Below are positions 619 through 14,090 of a stretch of DNA of 19,959 nt, in pieces (position 1 is the first letter of the stretch; each line of letters starts with the position of its first letter). Origin of the DNA: a virus (Duplodnaviria > Heunggongvirae > Uroviricota > Caudoviricetes); IMG/VR virus record IMGVR_UViG_2585427777_000028, positions 1 to 19,959 of that record; one strand, given 5' to 3'. Under the pieces are notes generated by a model. The model was not told the origin of the DNA. It saw only the letters and a program-made list of their open reading frames with translations, and searched no databases. Made by a program: the position numbers and the translations under genes.

Positions 619-3213
619 CTACTCTATCTCTTTTGCTTTTTTAATTATCAATTCAAGCTCTGTTAAACGAGACTCAATGCGTTCACACCTTCTTCGCTGG
701 AATGCAGCCTCCAACCACAAACATTCATCTGGACGCAATCCCCAACGCTCACCAGCATGTACAACCAGTTCCGTGTCACCAGTATCGTATTCTTCAAAGT
801 ATTCGTGAACGATGTCTTCTCCTTCAGGGGATTTAGCTATAAATGACACCTTGCGCTGTGCCATTACAGGTTGGTACTCATCATCCCATTTATCATGACA
901 TAGCAAGCCAAATCTTGTTCCATCTATCCCCTTTGCAAGAAACGCATCTCTTACCTGCTGTGCAATTGCTCCGAAATGCCAACGAGCAGTATCCGAACCT
1001 TTAGCCTTAATATCGGACAACCACTGGTAAACGATAATATTTACGTCACCCCATGCGTCAAGAATTGCATCCTGATCCACCTCCATGATTTCTGAAAGTT
1101 GCTCTACTGTCAGTGGCTTTGTTTTCAATGTCTGGTCTGAAGTATTTATTGCCCCATTAGTTGCATATACTTGCGTCCACCGTTTAGATGATATCCCACA
1201 TGATGACGTATTATCTTTATTAGCACTTATATAGCCATTAACCTCCGCTGACTGACCGATATACAAATATGAAGATGTTGATAAGGGAGATTTAAATATC
1301 CATTGAGCATTGGTAAAGTCATAAATACCGGTATCACCTTTTTCACTAACATGAAAAGTTACATTCCGTAACGTATTCTTTGCATCATAACGGGCGGCTT
1401 GTGTTGTTGCCCTCGAAACAGTGAATCCTTTGTCATCAAGGTTTGCCTGCTCTATGACTTCACCACCAGGCATAATTTTACCAAGGCTTAACAAACCAGA
1501 GTTAGTGACAATATCATGGGTTGAATCAATGATAATACCAGGCTGATTTCTTGAGGTTGTTTTTACATGCATTACCTGTTGTGGCATTAATGTGTAAAAT
1601 GTAGTTTCTCGCCCACTATCACCATCTGGTATGCCATTTGTATTCCCCATTACAAGGTCATACCCACCTGCAATCATACGGAAAAACATTGCTTCTGGTT
1701 CATATGTAAGATTGCTAACATCTGGCGTTCCGGTATCATTTGGATCTGCTATTTCATAGGCTCTTCCTGCACCTGCCTGTATTTGCTGCACCCCAAGATA
1801 AACACCATCAAGTGTGTACTGATGCAAATATTTTCTGGTTGAAGAATATGCAGATCCAGCCTGACAAAAATAAATAGCAGTACCGTCACACGCAACTGTT
1901 TGCATATCCCTCACAAAATCGGCAATTTCAAATTCAAAAGTTGCTTCATTACGATAATCGTAATTGTACGCCTGCGGGTTAATAAATTTGCTGGTATCAA
2001 ATACTTTTACATAATAGCGAATTTGATCTGGTGTTGATGGGCTCTCACCAGGGCCAACATAACGTTTTGCTGTAGTAATCAGCCATCGACTCATAGGGTC
2101 GGTGCATAAAACATTTACCTGATTCTCGTAACCATCTTCCCATATGAGAAAAAACTCTGGTTCAATTTCACCACCATCAGTAGGGGTGAATCTGGTGATA
2201 TACTTTGCGCGATCCTCTCCTTTAGCTGTGCCAGCTAACCCCCATATCTGTAACTGGCCTCTTGTGTTACGAAAACCAACGCGCCCTATGGTTAAACCAA
2301 GACATTGATGTCCTAATTCTCTACTACCTTTAGTCTCCCAAAGAGGAGTTAACTCTTCATTCCCAAACCAATTATAAGCAACAACTTTATTAACTTCGTC
2401 ACCAGAACTAACGCTGCCACTCACATTTACCAAGCAATAAAGAACACTGTCATAATAATCAAGAACAGCACCCTGTATGACAGTATTTTTAATTGTTGCC
2501 AGTCGCAACCCTGACTTAACATGATTAGGAGTAGAAGGTCTGAAACCTGTATACATCCCCTTTTTTATAGTTTGTATTCTTTTTTCAGTAAAATCAGCAT
2601 CTGGCAGTAATCGATTCTCTGTGCGAAAATAGCCATTTATATACTTATTTCCATCAAAAACTTGATCTGTTATATATGTATTACCCCTTAGATCAACAAT
2701 CCTTCCTGTGATTTGTTTTTCTAACTCTTGAAAAGATAATGTGTCATCGGTGATGCCATCACCTTTTGCTCCCCATCCGCGAGGGTCAGCGTCATCACGC
2801 CACCGAGACATCTGCAATTCATGATATTTTTTAGCACCTTCCGGGTCTTCTAATTGTTGTCTTAATTGGTCAGGATCGTACTTAAGCACATTCGGAAAAT
2901 AGAACTGCTGCGTACCATATGCATCGTAAACAGCCATAGAATGGCCTTGCACGGTTACGAACTTGGCAATCTGTCCGTTATATACCGGATATCCAGCAGC
3001 GTTAATGATGATTGGTTGCGAAACAGGAACGTGAGAGCCATCTTCATTCTCTACATAAACCTGAATCTGGTTTTCAGGATTTACCGGGTCAGTGTCAATT
3101 TTACCGATATAAATTTTTCCATTTGCTACGGTTTTAAAAGAGCTAGCCATTGTGAAGAGTTGCGATGGCATACCTATCACAACATTTGGGGTTATATCAG
3201 GCATATTAGTCAT
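619..3213 (-). CDS. tailspike protein: P22 gp9-like N-terminal head-binding domain, pectate-lyase-like beta-helix, possible C-terminal intramolecular chaperone domain
   Basis: N-terminus [12 protein letters not shown]...[37 protein letters not shown]...[13 protein letters not shown]...VLKYDPDQ matches my recollection of the P22 tailspike head-binding domain. [12 protein letters not shown] is the usual opening of a pectate-lyase-3 beta-helix. The C-terminal region contains SDQTLK, resembling the Ser-Lys auto-cleavage motif of peptidase S74 chaperone domains. The track ORF runs to 3357 from a TTG; I take the ATG at 3211-3213 as the start (the ATG three codons further in is also possible). Confidence 0.8.
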
Positions 3214-3540
3214 CCTGTTTGAAGATTTAGATATTGAAGAAAACGGAATGACTGCAGACAAAGATGCAATTGTTTTGAAAAATAATCTTCTATTCACTTT
3301 AAAACTATGCAACATGAACAAAACAATTATTTTACAACAAACAAGAATCTTGATCAACAGACATATGCTTTATGCGTTTAATGCGTCATTTAAAAATAAC
3401 AAGTACTACTTTTATTCCTATCGTCCATGATTTTCATTTTCAAATATTATTAAATAACAATTCCTATTTATAATATCTGTCATTTAATTTGCTCCAGATA
3501 CAAGGAATCGCCGCAGCATGGCTACGGTGAATTTTGGGCA

Positions 3541-3583: not shown

Positions 3584-4462
3584 TCAGTAGTTATGAACTG
3601 AAGGAGGTAATTCTTTATTCTTAAGTCTCATCCATGCGGAAAGATTCGTTGGTCCGTCTGGCTCATTGATATCAACATCTCGTGTGTGGTTGATTAAAAC
3701 ATCTCTCGCCATATCGATAATACGGGAGAACTCATAACCGCAGTCATGACATCTGCCGGAATAGTTCGATTGAATTTGTTTTAGCGCCGGATACAGTTCG
3801 CGGAATAATGCCTGTGAGCGGTTGGCATAATCCCATAACCATACAAGGCTGTTTGCTTCTTTTGCAGAAAGCTCGTTGGTTTTCTTCTCTTGTTTGCCGA
3901 TGAACTCACCTTCAAGCACTACCCTGTGGATGTACTCTACAGCTTGCGGGATTTGTTCAATTGAAAGTTCATCAATGCTGTCAATACCAAAACGCTGATG
4001 AACCATATTGTATGCATCGTCATAGCGAAGTCCTTTCTTTCCTACCAGCATGTTTACTGCATCGCGTAGCGGTGTTCTTTCCTCAACAGTGGTTTTCTTT
4101 CCTTTAACATACTCGCCATGTTTGCGAATTGAAGGCAGAACTTCTGCTGTTACCCACTTGCGGAATTTGTGCGGGACTGAACCTTTATTGACTGCATCGC
4201 GGCAGCGCAGAACCAATGTATACATACCTGATTCGCTCACAATGCTTAGATTCTGCTCACCACCAAGGGTGTAACTTAAAGTTACTCCCTTTTCATCGTC
4301 ATCAAGTGCAGTAAGCGCCTTGCGTGAGTTAGTCAAAGCTAAAGCATCACAAACATCTTTAGCTACAAACCACGGCTCACCGCACTTGTTGATGACGCGG
4401 ATTTCACTGTCGCCGAATTTGAAGATGGTGAAATCGTTTTGTGCCTTTGCTATACTTTTCAT
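3584..4462 (-). CDS. ant: antirepressor Ant-like protein with BRO-N domain
   Basis: N-terminal [50 protein letters not shown] is a typical BRO-N motif. It lies downstream of arc on the same strand, as in P22 immI. Confidence 0.8.
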
Positions 4463-4524
4463 GTCAATATTTCCTAAGACGATTTGTTGATACCGAAGCC
4501 CTGACTGTTACCGCAGTTGGGGCT

Positions 4525-4728
4525 TCAACTTTCTGCTCTATCAGTTATATCTTTCCCTTCATATACTTCACCTATATTGCTAATGCTGGCAGAACATCCA
4601 AGATGCTTGTATCTTATGATGTCCAACACGCAGTCACTACACAGCATCCGACCTGTTTCTTTAGAGTAAATGTATGTTTGATCAGCGTCTGATTCGCTAA
4701 TGCCGCAGAAACAACATTCTTTACTCAT
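4525..4728 (-). CDS. small zinc-ribbon-like protein (CxxC...CxxC), unknown function
   Basis: 67 aa with Cys pairs (CCFCG ... CSDC). Sits between arc and ant; its start overlaps the arc stop. Confidence 0.5.
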   Translation of the reverse strand: MSKECCFCGISESDADQTYIYSKETGRMLCSDCVLDIIRYKHLGCSASISNIGEVYEGKDITDRAES

Positions 4729-4877
4729 ACCATTACCCCCTCTCTCTTCAAGCTGTCTATCAGGCGCTTGATAACCTCTGAGTTAAACGACCTGCACTCT
4801 TCCTTTGCCCTGCTACCTATAGCATCCTTTAACGACTGCGGCATCCTTACCAAAATCTTACTTATTTCTTTCTCCAT
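4725..4877 (-). CDS. arc: Arc-like ribbon-helix-helix repressor
   Basis: MPQSLKDAIGSRAKEECRSFNSEVIKRLIDSLKREG resembles P22 Arc (MPQFNLRWPREVLDLVRKVAEENGRSVNSEIYQRVMESFKKEG). Start taken at the ATG preceded by GGAGGG; the track start at 4913 is a TTG lying inside the promoter -10. Confidence 0.8.
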   Translation of the reverse strand: MEKEISKILVRMPQSLKDAIGSRAKEECRSFNSEVIKRLIDSLKREGVMV

Positions 4878-4913
4878 GTTACCCTCCACACAAACAACTC
4901 TTTTCGAATACAA

Positions 4914-4968
4914 AAGATAGCAAAGTGAGTATATCTAGTCAAAATTTTTTTGCATACACTTTGCTATC
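4914..4968. promoter_or_regulatory. divergent Pant / Pmnt control region with a 12-bp inverted repeat pair
   Basis: On the - strand, TTGACT, 17 nt, TATCTT lies upstream of arc. GATAGCAAAGTG (4916-4927) and its exact reverse complement CACTTTGCTATC (4957-4968) flank the region. Confidence 0.45.
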
Positions 4969-4991
4969 AAATTGAATACCAAAGGTGTGAT

Positions 4992-5240
4992 ATGGCAAAG
5001 GGTGTGTCAATTTCTCCAACTACGGTAAGAATCCCTGAATCTTTACGCGAGGCTCTTGCTGTCAGAGCATCAAAAAATGGTCGCTCTGTTAACTCCGAGA
5101 TCGTCATGATTTTGCAAGCCGCGATTGATGAAGATAGGTCGCCAAAGTCAGTTGAGTCATTTGCTCAGCAAGAAGCTGACAAATTCAAAGAGGCGCTGCT
5201 TGAGACGCTAAAGACCATGTATGCTAAGGATGAAAAATAA
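4992..5240 (+). CDS. mnt: Mnt-like ribbon-helix-helix repressor
   Basis: RIPESLREALAVRASKNGRSVNSEIVMILQAAIDE resembles P22 Mnt (the NGRS(V/M)NSE core is shared with Arc). ATG at 4992 is preceded by AAAGGTG. Divergent from arc. Confidence 0.8.
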   Translation: MAKGVSISPTTVRIPESLREALAVRASKNGRSVNSEIVMILQAAIDEDRSPKSVESFAQQEADKFKEALLETLKTMYAKDEK

Positions 5241-5776
5241 TGCTGCACACAATTCATTTCTTATGCCCCGTTAACACTGCCACTGTTGGGCAACTTCAGA
5301 ACCACTGTCTCACCGCATTATCTCAAGGCGCAACTGAATTAAATATCCATATATCAAGTCAGGGAGGGGAAACTGCCGCTGGCTTTACTGCGTATAACTT
5401 TCTTAAGTCACTCCCTGTTACCGTTAGAACTCACAACATAAGCAATGTTGAATCCATAGCTAATATCGTTTTCCTGGCTGGCTCAGAACGTTTCGCAAAC
5501 CCATTATCAAGATTCCTGTTACATCCTCTATTATGGTGCTTTGCCTCCCCAGCCGCCGACCATGCCAGATTGAGAGAGTACGGGAAATGCCTCGATAACG
5601 ATCTTGATCGCTTCGTTGAGACGTTCAATATCGACATCGGAACCCATATTAGGTGGGCATCCCTGATAGCAGACTCGACCATTTTGGATGCTAACAAGGC
5701 TCTTGAGCATGGCATAATTAATTCCATAAAAACTGCAAGGCTGGCATCCAATCAGGCAAACTGGTGGGTTGTTTGA
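5240..5776 (+). CDS. ClpP-fold (S14-like) serine peptidase
   Basis: IHISSQGGETAAGFTAYNFLKSLPVTVRTHNISNVESIANIVFLAGSERFANPLSRFLLHPL follows the ClpP core pattern (INSPGG...AG..IYD......V.T...GQAASMGAFLL.AG..GKR...PNSR.MIHQPL), with candidate Ser and His at the expected positions. Start overlaps the mnt stop (TAATG). Confidence 0.65.
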   Translation: MLHTIHFLCPVNTATVGQLQNHCLTALSQGATELNIHISSQGGETAAGFTAYNFLKSLPVTVRTHNISNVESIANIVFLAGSERFANPLSRFLLHPLLWCFASPAADHARLREYGKCLDNDLDRFVETFNIDIGTHIRWASLIADSTILDANKALEHGIINSIKTARLASNQANWWVV

Positions 5777-6971: not shown

Positions 6972-9140
6972 TCAATCCTGTGCCATTCCGCTTAGCGATG
7001 CCACAATCCCAGCCCTCGACAAACGCTGGAACTCTTCGTTTCCTAGTGCATCGCGAATTGCTTTTACGGCGGCCTTATTTGCCATAAATCTGCGTTCCGC
7101 CGCCGCTAATGCGCCATCACTTGCCCCAACTTTAACTGCCTTTGTCGCCTCTTGAACAGCCTTTTCAATAGCGTAACGACCACTTCTGGTTGCGGATAAT
7201 TTCGCTATCGATCCTTTTGCTATTGCATCAATTGCTCCACCTGCAGCGCCACCCACTATTGCTCCAATAACACCTCCTCCAGAGAACCCTGCGATAGCGC
7301 CAGCGGTTGGAAAAGCGCCAGACAATACGCTCTCTAAAACTGGATGAAGGCCATTCTCAAGAGTGCTAATGGCTGGCATAGAGCGCCCTGTTTGTTCAAC
7401 ATATCGAAGTGGCTTTGTTGCTGCTCTTGCAAGTTCTCCAAACCCCCTGGCAATCCTACCAAGCTCTGGAGAATATCGACTAATTGCCTTCACGTTTTGT
7501 GGGGTAAGAATAGTCGCGATATGCTTAATTCCAGCCTCTTCAGACTTACCTCCGCGTACCCCTTGCGATACCGCATCTTGTAATATTGATGCAATTGCTG
7601 GCGCGCGTTCCGACTCAGGTAGGGCGCTTATTATTTTATGGAACTGACCTGTTCCACTTTTTGCTGAACCCTGCAACGCCTTAGAGCCATTAGTTACCAA
7701 CTGATCAGTTGCAAGGTCTCTACCAAACGCTGCTTCAGCCTGTTCTTGTGCTGTAAATCTTGCTTTTGACAGATCATTAGCTTTTTGCCAGTCATCAAGA
7801 AAACCGCCATTTTGAGCCATTATGCGCATATCTTCCGTTGCTGCATCACGAAGCTCAGCCATGCGCCTTGCCGTATTTGCCTCACCAGACCTTATATACT
7901 TCTGCTCTGCGTCAGCAAGTTTACTTCGCCATGCCTTCATGGCATCAAACGTGATTCCTTTTTTACTAGTTTTAGCATAAGCAGATGCGAATTGTTTCAT
8001 CTCAGGAGTTAGCGGCATGCCGGCCAAAATATCACCCTGAATTGTAGCGTTCAGGTTTGACATTCTGGCCTTTGCGTCAGGCATCGTGGAGCGGACGCTA
8101 TCCCATGCGGCCTTTTCTGAATTTTTCATTTTATCAATACTTGCCAAAACCCTTTGTTTTATGGCTGCACTTTTTTCTGATGCAGTTCCTGCTTCAGCCC
8201 CAAACTCATCCAATGCTGAGTTAAATTTCGACTCTATTTCACTGAATGCTTTGGTGTGTGCATCCTGTGTAATTCCGGGCTTTGACGCCAGAATCCCCTC
8301 CGCCTGAGCAAGACCACGACTACCTGATCTCATGCCAGGAGTTAATGCGTTGATATCTATTCCAGCAGTATCTGCTGCTTTTGCTATTTCGTCTGACACA
8401 TTAGCTGACTGTCTGGCAATAATCTCTCTTCCTGTACCAGACTTTGCCATTTTCGAAACATCAGCAGCGGAATTTATTGCCCCGCCACCAAGAACTTGAG
8501 GTGATTTAGAGGTTAAGATCCTTCCAGCCCCAGAAAGTATCCCCTGAGCACCAATATTTATACCACCGTTAATGGCAGCATTTTGTGCAAAGTCGCCCTC
8601 CTGATTTGCAGCATCAGCAAGAGAACCTGCAATCATGTTTCCTGCGGAACCGATATCTCCAGCGAGCTTTGCTGGCGCTCCAGCAGCTTTTGCCGCTGTA
8701 CCAATTGGCAGGAGATACCCGCCAATTGTTTCACCGGCTTGCGCGTAATGGTCTGTCGGTCGATCGACTGGACGATAGACATCATCCAATACTTTTGGCC
8801 CACCAAGCCCCTGACTGATTGCATTAATCAGACTTGCGCCACCCTGTAATACGTCAAATGGTATGTTTACCAGACCACGACCAGCCTGTTCTGCAATTTG
8901 CCCTGCACTTTGACCACCTGTGAGCCAATCACCAGCTTGTTGCATCAATGATGGTTCTTCTTTCTGCTGCTGAGGTGGAGGGTATGCTGCATAAAACTGA
9001 TCTCTTGCTTCAGCCCATTTGTCACCAGCCTTAGGGGCAACAACCTCATCAAAATATTGCGCTTGAGCCTGTGCTTTCTGTTCTTCAGTTAACGCCTGAT
9101 ACTGTGGAGAAGCGATAACATCTTTCCATGCTTTAGCCAT
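6972..9140 (-). CDS. putative virion DNA-ejection (injection) protein
   Basis: 722 aa with a Gly/Ala-rich hydrophobic C-terminal segment ([36 protein letters not shown]). Lies just upstream, in transcription order, of the immI and tailspike region, where P22-like phages carry ejection genes. Assigned by position and composition, not by recognised homology. Confidence 0.5.
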
Positions 9141-9997
9141 TAATCACCCCATAAAGACGAGAAACCGGACTTATTGCTGTCGCTTCCTGATTTTCGCTCA
9201 CTAACATATGTGTCATAACCTGATGAACTATATCCCATTGATTCAGCCTCCCTTGCTGCAACCTTTTGAAATACAGAATATTGCGATCGGATTTCAGATA
9301 ACTGTTTTCTGACGACCTCTTCAGGCTGTGTTATATCGAGTTTCGCGATCAGGTTTTCCAGTTTTTGGCCTTCAGCATTGGAGAGGCTACCCATACCTCG
9401 CATAGTCTGCACGTTCTGGACAAACGCACCCGACTTTAATTCTTCTATCGCATTACGGTTTGCAAGCCCTTCAGCACTTGTGAAGCCATCTATATTTCTT
9501 CCTTCGAAGCGACCGATACCTTCAAGCTCCTTCTTACCAAGCAAAGAATCTATTTTCTCTATCCCTCGCTCACCAGTAATCAACGCATTGTTGTAATTAT
9601 TGTTGCCATCAAGCCATCTCTTAGCCTGAGACATTCTGGCTGACGTTGCAGCTTTACCGGTTAGAGGATCAATTCCCGTCGCTGCTATCTGTGAGTTAAG
9701 AGACAAAACATCCATATCCTGAAGTTGTCCTGCTCTTTCAAGGGCCGCCTGTGACTGCTTAAACACATACTTGTCGTGATTCAGTCTTGCCATTTGAGCC
9801 TTATAGGAAAGATCCTGCCCCCTAATAGCCCTCGCATTCGTCATGTCATTATTGCGAATGGTTTCGTTAATTCTTTGCTGCTCCTGCTGGCGACCAACCA
9901 TCTTGTCCTGAACAGCAAACGCCTTTTCTGGCCCAAGCGCACCGAGAGACATCGTAGTCAGCATGTGTGATAGTTGTTCATCTGACCAGATAGCCAT
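9140..9997 (-). CDS. putative virion DNA-ejection protein
   Basis: 285 aa; its stop overlaps the start of the 722-aa gene (TAATG). Gln-rich with coiled-coil-like stretches. The true start may be an internal Met because the upstream fragment overlaps it. Confidence 0.45.
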
Positions 9998-10846: not shown

Positions 10847-11074
10847 TTATGCTGCCAGAAGGTTCTTTTTGCTTATTTCAAGCATTTCGCTTGCTTGATA
10901 TTTGCCACCAGAAATCTCTTCGATTTTTGATGCGTATTTCGTTTTCCCAAAAAACTCAGTCTTAGGGAGGAAGCCGTTTTTGAGCCACTTATAGACAGCC
11001 CTTTCACTAACTCCACAAGCCTTCGCAACTTCAGGGATGCCGACACCTTTAATCGGCTCATCAAGATTTTGCAT
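10847..11074 (-). CDS. cro: Cro-like helix-turn-helix repressor
   Basis: 75 aa with HTH GIPEVAKACGVSERAVYKWLKNG. Divergent from cI, followed by nutR and cII. RBS AAGGA. Confidence 0.7.
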   Translation of the reverse strand: MQNLDEPIKGVGIPEVAKACGVSERAVYKWLKNGFLPKTEFFGKTKYASKIEEISGGKYQASEMLEISKKNLLAA

Positions 11075-11089
11075 AGGAATATCCTTTTT

Positions 11090-11152
11090 CGTACTTTCAG
11101 TACGTATTATGGTTGAACTGAAAGTTTTTGCAAGTGCTTTAGTATCGTACTC
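11090..11152. promoter_or_regulatory. cI-cro intergenic operator/promoter region (PR on the - strand; three dyad-symmetric elements)
   Basis: Dyads GTACTttcAGTAC (about 11091-11103), AACTgaaAGTT (about 11116-11126) and AGTAtcgTACT (about 11141-11151), centres roughly 24-25 bp apart. On the - strand TTGCAA, 17 nt, ATAATA fits a PR driving cro. Confidence 0.4.
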
Positions 11153-11860
11153 ATGGTTCAGAATGAAAAAGTGCGCAAAGAATTCGCCCAGCGGCTAGCG
11201 CAAGCCTGTAAAGAAGCTGGTCTTGATGAACATGGTAGGGGGATGGCCATAGCCCGTGCCCTTTCTCTTTCGTCCAAAGGCGTTAGCAAATGGTTTAATG
11301 CTGAGTCTTTACCGCGTCAGGAAAAAATGAATGCGCTTGCGAAATTTCTAAACGTTGATGTTGTTTGGCTTCAGCACGGCACTTCGTTAAATGGAGCGAA
11401 TGATGAAGATACTCTTTCATTTGTTGGCAAATTAAAAAAAGGGTTAGTGCGCGTGGTTGGTGAGGCAATTCTTGGTGTTGATGGTGCCATCGAGATGACC
11501 GAAGAGCGCGATGGGTGGCTCAAAATTTATAGCGATGATCCAGATGCCTTTGGCCTTCGTGTGAAAGGAGACAGCATGTGGCCCAGAATAAAATCAGGAG
11601 AATATGTACTCATTGAGCCTAACACCAAAGTATTCCCGGGTGATGAGGTGTTTGTCAGAACCGTTGAAGGACACAACATGATCAAAGTTCTTGGCTATGA
11701 CAGAGACGGAGAATACCAATTTACAAGCATCAACCAGGACCACAGGCCAATAACGTTGCCTTATCATCAAGTAGCAAAGGTGGAGTATGTGGCTGGTATT
11801 CTGAAGCAATCTCGCCATCTGGATGACATCGAGGCAAGGGAGTGGCTGAAAAGTTCGTGA
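11153..11860 (+). CDS. cI: CI-type prophage repressor (N-terminal HTH, C-terminal S24 LexA-like peptidase domain)
   Basis: C-terminal region contains GDSMWP (S24 catalytic serine motif). N-terminal HTH-like region. Divergent from cro. Confidence 0.85.
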   Translation: MVQNEKVRKEFAQRLAQACKEAGLDEHGRGMAIARALSLSSKGVSKWFNAESLPRQEKMNALAKFLNVDVVWLQHGTSLNGANDEDTLSFVGKLKKGLVRVVGEAILGVDGAIEMTEERDGWLKIYSDDPDAFGLRVKGDSMWPRIKSGEYVLIEPNTKVFPGDEVFVRTVEGHNMIKVLGYDRDGEYQFTSINQDHRPITLPYHQVAKVEYVAGILKQSRHLDDIEAREWLKSS

Positions 11861-13338: not shown

Positions 13339-13344
13339 AATTCC

Positions 13345-13373
13345 CCCCCCGGCCTCAGCGCCGGGTTTTCTTT
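13345..13373 (+). terminator. rho-independent terminator ending the cI-higB-higA-chaperone transcript
   Basis: CCCGGC-CTCAGC-GCCGGG hairpin followed by TTTTCTTT, directly after the chaperone stop. Confidence 0.55.
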
Positions 13374-13548
13374 GCCTCACGATCCCCACACCTAAAAACA
13401 CATAACCAATTGTATTTGTTGATGTAACTTGCTAAACCATGCAGTTCTGATCCCTGCCGCATAACCTTCATCAGCCACATTTTCAAAAATAAATTTCCTT
13501 ATATATCAGAATCATACTTCGTATAGTTAATAAATCACCAAAATTCGT

Positions 13549-13588
13549 ACCAATAGTTCTTGATAATGTCGAACTATTGGTTCATTAT
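13549..13588 (+). promoter_or_regulatory. candidate PL/OL region
   Basis: ACCAATAGTT and its reverse complement AACTATTGGT flank TTGATA, 17 nt, CATTAT. The arms resemble the AACTnnnAGTT dyad in the cI-cro region. Confidence 0.3.
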
Positions 13589-13634
13589 TGTCGCATCAGC
13601 AGGACGCTGGTAGCCAAACGGAACAGATTGGCAG

Positions 13635-13676
13635 GCTCTTTAACATTGATGGGATTGTCCCGCCGAAATGCGGGAA
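13635..13676 (+). promoter_or_regulatory. nutL-like site (boxA + boxB)
   Basis: GCTCTTTAACA (boxA-like), a 12-nt spacer, then hairpin TCCCGC-CGAAAT-GCGGGA. This is 19 of 20 identical to the nutR hairpin on the other strand. Confidence 0.55.
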
Positions 13677-13782
13677 CCAAAGAGTAGTTGGCTTTGGGGT
13701 GACGTGAAGTGCAGCTGCACGACGGCAACCGGAAGATAAGCACCCGGCGCGTCACCGCCAAAGTCAATCATCGGAGGTCAAC

Positions 13783-14082
13783 ATGACAGTAGTCATTACA
13801 TATCTTGCTGACGATAACGCCAGAAATCGCCGCAGAGCACGCAGACAGGCTCAACGTGAACAGGCAATGCAAGAGCAGCGACTGGCGCGAAAAATTGCGC
13901 TAAAGCTCTCTGGTTGCGTCAGAGCAGACAAAGCAGCATCACTAGGAAGCCTTCGCTGCAAGAAGGCAGAAGAAGTTGAGCGTAAACAGAACCGTATTTA
14001 CTACCGCAAGCCACGCAGTGAAATGGGTGTGACTTGTGTTGGTCGCCAGAAAATGAAATTAGGCAGCAAACCACTTATTTGA
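13783..14082 (+). CDS. N: N-like transcription antiterminator
   Basis: Arginine-rich motif near the N-terminus (DNARNRRRARRQAQREQ). First gene downstream of nutL, transcribed away from cI. RBS GGAGG. Confidence 0.6.
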   Translation: MTVVITYLADDNARNRRRARRQAQREQAMQEQRLARKIALKLSGCVRADKAASLGSLRCKKAEEVERKQNRIYYRKPRSEMGVTCVGRQKMKLGSKPLI

Positions 14083-14090
14083 GGTGAGAT

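Follow-up and report, generated by a model that had tools for sequence, protein, structure and literature searches.

The immI region of phage P22, with its two repressors Arc and Mnt, provides textbook models of beta-sheet DNA recognition. P22 Arc shuts off both overlapping promoters of the region via one operator. The Mnt operator Omnt is one compact, two-fold symmetric 17-bp element at the Pant start (AGGTCCACGGTGGACCT) in the format of a 7-bp half-site, a central base and a second 7-bp half-site, and it lies beside one 21-bp Oarc between the -35 and -10 elements. P22 Mnt acts as a tetramer on a symmetric site with the half-site GTGGACC (PMC2726951). Other loci of the P22 family carry xCCAC-N-GTGGx palindromes at the Pant start. 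Multi-site arrays of ribbon-helix-helix proteins are usually regular, with a spacing of about one helical turn or less. ParG, CopG, omega, MetJ and AmrZ (amrZ1, amrZ2) use several short direct or inverted repeats across the promoter, occupied by several dimers (PMC3413123, PMC3325190). For the immI switch, the P22 version is the only one studied (PMC2629481). The Mnt of the Gally prophage of E. coli LF82 (PMC9928086) belongs to the 720R6/P22 operator type, unlike the type described here, and a literature search for experiments on the latter variant found none.

The window, i.e. the whole stretch of 19,959 bp which was analysed, belongs to a Lederbergvirus-like prophage and contains its immI region, which is of the P22 type. 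The nearest phage records were EC.P3, phiv205-1 and vB_EcoP-611R6; the closest records are Lederbergvirus. The minus strand carries ant, a small ORF and an arc-like gene, while the mnt-like gene is transcribed divergently from the plus strand. The antirepressor gene ant (3584-4462, minus strand) was recognized by the Pfam domains Bro-N and P22_AR_C, and opposite its 5' end lies the sar antisense RNA gene (4464-4530, plus strand; Rfam RF00262, 74.5 bits versus a gathering score of 43, E 2e-15). The arc-like gene (4725-4877, minus strand) encodes a ribbon-helix-helix protein of 50 aa (Pfam Arc, E 4e-12), whose top solved-structure matches were Arc repressor chains. The mnt-like gene (4992-5240, plus strand) encodes 82 aa with a ribbon-helix-helix domain and a C-terminal helix region (Pfam Arc, E 1e-10); its top solved structure was P22 Mnt (1mnt, E 2e-6, residues 12-73), in an alignment which takes in both parts. 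Thus, the gene content of a P22-type immI region was found, with two ribbon-helix-helix repressors, an antirepressor and sar at its usual place. The region lies between the DNA transfer genes (6972-9997, minus strand) and the tailspike gene (619-3357, minus strand), both assigned by PHROG matches, which is the late-operon location expected of P22-type immI.

Some features of the surroundings deviate from P22. A 67-aa Cys-rich ORF (CCFCG...CSDC; 4525-4728, minus strand) occupies the interval from arc to sar/ant, which is empty in P22; the stop region of this ORF is overlapped by the sar 3' end. It matched phrog_7150, a family with no assigned function, and gave no Pfam match; phage 611R6 carries an unrelated 73-aa ORF in the same slot (locus L001, 1579-1800). 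Downstream of mnt lies a ClpP-like ORF (5240-5776, plus strand; Pfam CLP_protease, E 2e-11), whose start overlaps the stop codon of mnt (TAATG) and which is therefore probably co-transcribed with mnt in the lysogen. Database entries name it "head maturation protease" or "Clp protease proteolytic subunit", a PADLOC search gave no match for it, and a ClpP-like gene is also found 3' of the type-C mnt genes introduced below (L040, L043). In the region 10900-11860, within about 1 kb of the minus-strand DNA-transfer block, a CI-like repressor gene was found (11153-11860, plus strand, phrog_4). The gene order of P22 is different, which points to a prophage that carries a deletion or is mosaic. The arc-mnt block was present in 119 of 5426 complete E. 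coli genomes (about 2%), where the copies are annotated just as "Arc family DNA-binding protein".

The 114-bp intergenic region between arc and mnt contains two arms of 12 nt, a left arm L (GATAGCAAAGTG, 4916-4927) and a right arm R1 (CACTTTGCTATC, 4957-4968), found by reading the sequence and by a repeat finder. An earlier note on this DNA had described them as exact inverted repeats 29 bp apart, and the recount agreed, with 100% complementarity and 29 nt between the arms. This was the sole perfect inverted repeat of at least 12 bp with a loop of at most 60 nt in the window. When the whole window was shuffled 300 times with its dinucleotides preserved, 9% of the shuffles contained at least one comparable repeat, so that the repeat by itself is weakly significant window-wide; in 20,000 shuffles of the intergenic region a comparable repeat appeared in 0.04%. 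The 11-mer ATAGCAAAGTG had no further exact copy in the 20-kb window beyond the two arms. The 9-mer ATASCAAAG was found four times in the window versus 0.52 times expected (none of 200 shuffles reached four), and three of these copies, at 4917, 4959 and 4976, lie inside 68 bp. A window-wide search for the arm motif yielded nothing outside the immI region except ATAGCAAAG in ant, a fourth exact copy at 4445-4453 (minus strand) within codons 4-6 (S-I-A-K), which is probably a coding coincidence. The second-longest short-range inverted repeat of the window is a perfect 11-bp repeat (ACCAATAGTTC at 13549-13559, GAACTATTGGT at 13571-13581) with an 11-nt loop, located in the long non-coding stretch 13339-14090.

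The symmetry of the arms had been noted as differing from the P22 operators, and this is correct, as P22 has no such distant pair. Aligned to P22, the region showed no palindrome at the position of Omnt and was asymmetric at that of Oarc; in addition, it had an A+T insertion of 12 nt and a second arm, both absent from P22. At 4890-4913, the place that corresponds to Omnt, a search for a compact palindrome of the P22 kind found just CTTTT...AAAAG and TTCGAA, both not conserved in Serratia.

A promoter scan reported one sigma-70-like promoter, the homologue of Pant, which drives the arc-ant operon, on the minus strand (4914-4942), with a -35 element TTGACT (4942-4937), a 17-bp spacer and a TG-extended -10 element TATCTT (4919-4914). 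It aligned column for column with the 29-bp Pant/Pmnt and arcO element annotated in phage epsilon34; P22 has the identical element (TTGACA-17-TATATT). Relative to the predicted Pant transcription start at about 4907, the left arm covers approximately -9 to -20, overlapping 4 nt of the -10 element and 8 nt of the spacer, and the right arm lies at approximately -50 to -61, in the promoter or leader region of mnt and 24 nt upstream of the mnt ATG. The earlier note had assigned the left arm both to the Pant -10 element and to the arc leader. The first assignment is right; the second has to be given up, since an arm upstream of the predicted start is promoter DNA and not arc leader RNA. The arms also do not bracket two divergent promoters, as had been proposed, but flank the Pant -35 element and an A+T tract, with the left arm on the Pant -10 element. 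This A4T7 tract (CAAAATTTTTTTG, 4940-4952) is located just upstream of the Pant -35 element, is missing in P22 and is nearly invariant in the operator types A, B and C described below. It may represent an UP-like element or a bent spacer.

Pmnt was sought by sequence and none was placed: the -10 element at the P22 position reads TATCTA here, the candidate TTGCAT at 4950 has no acceptable -10 element at 16-18 bp, and the candidate TGnTATCAA in the right arm misses the final T. The latter candidate bears on an alternative explanation, namely that the repeat is a by-product of back-to-back divergent promoters, by promoter duplication or by chance, with no shared repressor involved. In types A, B1 and B2 the motif TGnTATC, which resembles an extended -10 element, indeed closes both arms; the Pant copy is TGCTATCTT, and TGCTATCAA would belong to a possible Pmnt. 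We nevertheless regard this explanation as very unlikely, since the right-hand TATCAA lacks the conserved final T, the promoter scan was silent on it, and the low frequency of such repeats in shuffles of the intergenic region speaks against chance. It also leaves unexplained why the inner bases change in concert from type to type (CAAAG versus CAC-N-G), along with the Mnt N-terminus. As operators commonly overlap -10 elements, a promoter-like end of the arms is compatible with repressor sites.

The positions of the arms are also relevant for an RNA structure element in both leaders, the other possibility raised by the earlier note. Such a hairpin might act as a terminator, a processing site or a translational block in one of two forms. 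In the first, late read-through RNA of the minus strand would fold into a stem of 12 bp that closes a 29-nt loop and has UUUUGUAUU behind it; in the second, R1 would pair within the mnt leader with a copy over the mnt start codon. The two strands folded with -17.3 and -16.1 kcal/mol (z -3.9 and -2.9), and the leader fold burying the mnt start with -19.2 kcal/mol (z -3.0). However, any inverted pair of protein sites would fold likewise. With the predicted Pant start lying downstream of the left arm, the Pant and Pmnt transcripts hold at most one arm each, and the two arms co-occur only on read-through RNA. The stem is A+U-rich (5 G-C pairs of 12) for a loop of 29 nt, no Rfam match covered the arms, with sar elsewhere as the sole match, and a scan of 4400-5400 for terminator-like sites found none. 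Together with the comparative data given next, this makes an RNA hairpin highly improbable.

About 100 loci were collected with the Mnt-like protein, the Arc-like protein and the conserved core as queries, and they fall into few types. The core GTCAAAATTTTTTTGNNTACAC, scanned across viral and metagenome collections, retrieved types A, B and C only, plus unrelated matches; an Mnt-alignment scan of genome contigs gave 13 loci, with those of Serratia, Providencia, Xenorhabdus and Tatumella as the informative ones. Type A comprises the window, 33 IMG/VR contigs and Serratia marcescens, with the Arc ribbon SK[IT]L[VI]RMP, the Mnt N-terminus MAKG[VA]SISPTT[VI]RIP and the arms GATA[G/T]CAAAGTG (L) and CACTTTG[C/A]TATC (R1). 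Type B1 (611R6 and others) combines the Arc ribbon SRILVR[MI]P with the Mnt N-terminus MTKVRDIAPYSVRMP and the sites [A/G]TATCA[C/T][C/T]GTG (L), CACTGTGATATC (R1) and TTATCACGGTG (R2). Type B2 (L038) has the Arc ribbon VVDCIVRMSP, the Mnt N-terminus MPKIKVRDISPYGVRMP and the sites GTATCATCGTG (L) and CACTGTGATATC (R1). In type B3 (L168/L177) the Arc ribbon is SRIVVRMP and the Mnt N-terminus MTKIKVRDISPYGVRMP, with a B2-like intergenic region and L and R1 as in B2. Comparing L168/L177 with L038 and L001, the intergenic region and the mnt N-terminus recombine as one block, apart from arc. Providencia carries an unrelated left-hand gene, a B-type Mnt ribbon, a degenerate L (GTATCAACGTA) and R1 as TTGTGATATC. 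Type C (E. coli, Tatumella) has the Arc ribbon RDIAPLGIR, the Mnt ribbon RDISP[ML]GIR and four sites, all centred on ACAC-N-GTGT, of which the one at R1 is CTACACTGTGTAG.

The 29-bp spacing was identical in all operator types. Among the 33 IMG/VR contigs of type A, 7 carried perfect 12/12 arms and the rest 11/12, as position 5 is G or T and varies independently in either arm. For an analysis of covariation 17 distinct 61-mers of types A, B1, B2, C and Xenorhabdus were employed. Arm positions were complementary in 84% of the cells, and two-sided change was seen at 5 of the 12 positions (20 cells). Covariation scored 0.299 versus 0.137 in shuffles (0 of 500 reached the observed value) and at most 0.113 with the pairing slid; since the sequences are related and represent about four lineages, we take these figures as supportive and not as a probability. 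The concerted two-sided changes indicate that the inverted repeat is kept while its sequence changes. The arms do not stand out as changed segments within otherwise conserved surroundings: in the segment-wise comparison of the window with 611R6, identity ranged from 67 to 78% overall and only the centre reached 90%. Therefore, the argument rests on concerted change and not on mosaicism. Complementarity kept by changes on both sides would also suit the RNA hairpin. Against it, the one position inside the supposed stem that corresponds to the central base of the Omnt format was non-complementary in 8 of the 17 sequences, as expected of an uncontacted central base and not of a helix, most type-A relatives have a G/T mismatch in one arm, and a hairpin does not account for L0 and R2, the additional directly oriented copies of types B and C.

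With positions and spacing conserved in four types, concerted change of the arms and, as outlined below, their tracking of the Mnt N-terminus, the paired repressor site which the earlier note had offered as one option is supported. Most likely the arms are a rearranged version of the classic P22 immI switch and not a new kind of element. As to the protein involved, we consider it fairly probable from sequence comparison that the arms are twin sites for the Mnt-like repressor of the prophage itself, mirrored around the Pant -35 element and the A+T tract. Types A, B, C and Xenorhabdus each combine a distinct Mnt N-terminus with a distinct arm, independently of the Arc type. Beside three Arc ribbons (SRILVRMP in 611R6, VDCIVRMS in L038, SRIVVRMP in L168), the right arm CACTGTGATATC is accompanied by the Mnt ribbon VRDI[AS]PY[SG]VRMP. 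In the Serratia relative, whose Mnt is 78% identical with the same ribbon (SISPTTIRIP), GATAGCAAAGTG is retained exactly in diverged flanks. Hence, the arms track the Mnt type and not the Arc type, which points to the Mnt-like protein as the reader. For type A this assignment is drawn from positional homology with type B and from the one diverged relative. The left arm, over the predicted -10 element and spacer, has the placement for Pant occlusion expected of an Mnt-type operator. Binding by Mnt, its stoichiometry, the sign of its effect on mnt and the position of Pmnt are what we infer from these comparisons.

Alternatively, the arms could be sites of the Arc-like repressor, the left one as the retained -10-proximal half of Oarc and the right one as a copy for a displaced Pmnt. 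The left arm lies at the position of this half inside the Pant spacer, aligns with it in 9 of 11 bases (ATAGCAAAGTG versus ATAGTAGAGTG), and an Arc homologue is encoded next door. Moreover, a search of the intergenic region in types A and B yielded no operator that could be assigned to the Arc-like protein alone, so that this protein may use the arm sites too. We hold this alternative to be unlikely. The B-type arms are unchanged across three very different Arc ribbons that share one Mnt ribbon, and the right arm of Providencia is closely similar although its left-hand gene is not arc. Conversely, the Arc ribbons of types A and B1 are nearly identical, with one conservative K/R change, yet their arms differ (CAAAGTG versus CAC-N-GTG), as do their Mnt N-termini throughout. 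Two adjacent near-symmetric halves from -35 to -10, to which two dimers bind cooperatively in an Arc-type operator, were not found: the left arm alone fits the position, neither arm is adjoined by a partner half-site (ATAGCAAAGT versus TAGATATACT match in 3 of 10 bases), and compared to P22 Oarc the TAGA boxes are lacking. The 10 bp adjoining the left arm track neither Arc type in the relatives. The 10-mer AGTATATCTA, reaching from the left arm to the Pant -35 element, was tried as an Arc operator, since it had seemed to go with the Arc type, and rejected, as L168/L177 pair an A/B1-like Arc with a B2-type 10-mer.

Taking the Mnt-like protein as the reader, each arm can be written in the Omnt format as CAC-T-TTGCTAT-C, with the left arm read on the minus strand. 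We propose that this corresponds to the last three bases of a weak inner half, the central base and the strong outer half TTGCTAT. In types B and C, CAC-N-GTG forms the centre of the sites at L, R1 and R2, as in Mnt operators of the P22 family. Based on the P22 half-site and these type B and C sites, the putative left operator O_L (4917-4931) reads ATAGCAA-A-GTGAGTA, where the outer half is strong and the inner half retains GTG alone. On the same basis, and with the type-C palindrome in addition, the putative operator O_R1 (4953-4967) reads CATACAC-T-TTGCTAT. Type C carries a perfect 13-bp palindrome at the R1 position. The two-fold symmetry expected of an Mnt-type operator is thus present in type C (CTACAC-T-GTGTAG), partial in type B and absent in the window, where TTGCTAT shares TG alone with GTGAGTA and GTGTATG. 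With such asymmetric 15-bp units, the reading in P22 format is weaker for type A than for types B and C.

Further copies of the motif were found near the arms. A third, imperfect copy, R2 (GAATACCAAAGGTG, 4974-4987, plus strand), contains the half-site ATACCAA at 4976-4982 and overlaps the Shine-Dalgarno region of mnt. The distance between its box and that of R1 is 20 bp, the same as in type B1. R2 is conserved in the Serratia relative of type A, and types B and C have equivalent sites. A weak fourth copy (ATGGCAAAGGGT, 4992-5003, plus strand) over the start codon and codons 2-4 of mnt may be a coding coincidence. The repeat finder also reported GAATACAAAAG (4906-4916, plus strand), a direct repeat of the R2 start abutting the left arm, which spans the predicted Pant start and -10 element and is conserved in Serratia. 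In total, there are two or more putative operator copies in type A and four in types B and C.

From this arrangement we propose the following mechanism. The Mnt-like repressor bound to the left operator (4917-4931) would cover the Pant -10 element and the spacer and exclude RNA polymerase; with polymerase kept off Pant, the lysogen would make neither Arc nor antirepressor (Ant). At the right operator (4953-4967), repressor aided by the copy at 4974-4987 would sit over the mnt promoter or leader, resulting in negative autoregulation of mnt, added occupancy near Pant, or both. Autoregulation is a guess here. P22 achieves the shut-off of Pant with one operator at the start site; here the site would be multiplied. 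Compared to Omnt, the window has two full-strength mirrored copies, 41 bp apart from centre to centre, together with partial copies; of the two, the left one covers the -10 element and spacer instead of the start site, and the units are asymmetric. The operators of ParG, CopG, omega, MetJ and AmrZ resemble this arrangement in having multiple short repeats over one promoter, in contrast to which the strong copies of the window are four turns apart with the conserved A+T tract and the -35 element between them. One might go further and consider the mirrored pair a single unit, in which Mnt tetramers bridge the 41 bp (about four turns) across the A4T7 tract as a repressor clamp on the Pant -35/UP region. 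To our knowledge, such a clamp or loop architecture has not been described for repressors of the Arc/Mnt family, and we rate it as quite unlikely. If true, types A to C would be a natural series of ribbon-to-half-site specificity switches, including an Mnt without an Arg2 equivalent which reads TTG and not GTG.

The likeness to P22 Mnt and Omnt extends from the homologous protein and the predicted Pant-occluding site to the way in which the site sequence changes with the N-terminal ribbon. In the 1mnt alignment (R13 corresponds to P22 R10), the Mnt-like protein of the window has Val-Ser in place of Arg2-Asp3 of P22 Mnt and Pro in place of His6. Arg2 and His6 of P22 Mnt presumably contact the DNA. 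The half-sites share the grammar [G/T]TG plus 4 bases on each side of a central base (PMC2726951). A series of Mnt N-terminal segments with their half-sites was compiled from L004, L044-L049, L105-L106, L001, L038, L039 and the window: RDDPHFNFR with GTGGACC, RDDPQFNLR with GTGGTCT, REDPQFKLR with GTGGTTC, REEPQINIR with GTTATAC, RDIAPYSVR with GTGATAT, RDISPMGIR with GTGTAGC and VSISPTTVR with TTGCTAT. Types which keep the Arg have half-sites that start with G, and type A starts with TTG; a connection between the two is suggested as a lead only.

In summary of the comparisons, this is a real, conserved regulatory repeat with predicted operators, which on the sequence evidence adds to the immI switch an operator layout and a specificity class that are both new. 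If the operators are read correctly, the layout of immI operators is not fixed: an Mnt-type site was multiplied, moved to the Pant -10 element and shifted in sequence together with the repressor N-terminus. The understanding of how immI-type switches work is unchanged by this. The natural pairs of repressor and half-site could serve as a test set for a ribbon-helix-helix recognition code and for orthogonal repressor parts.

Two observations concern type C. In these loci (L039-L043, L113, L125) the N-terminal segments of the Arc-like and the Mnt-like protein are almost the same (MKVRDIAPLGIR versus MKGARDISPMGIR), and both repressors probably compete for the same four ACAC-N-GTGT operators. In L043 a second, different Mnt-like gene (MSDRKYKNPQVNLRLP...; 1740-1991) is located between mnt and the ClpP-like gene, and its product is the protein which serves as mnt of the loci L100-L104.
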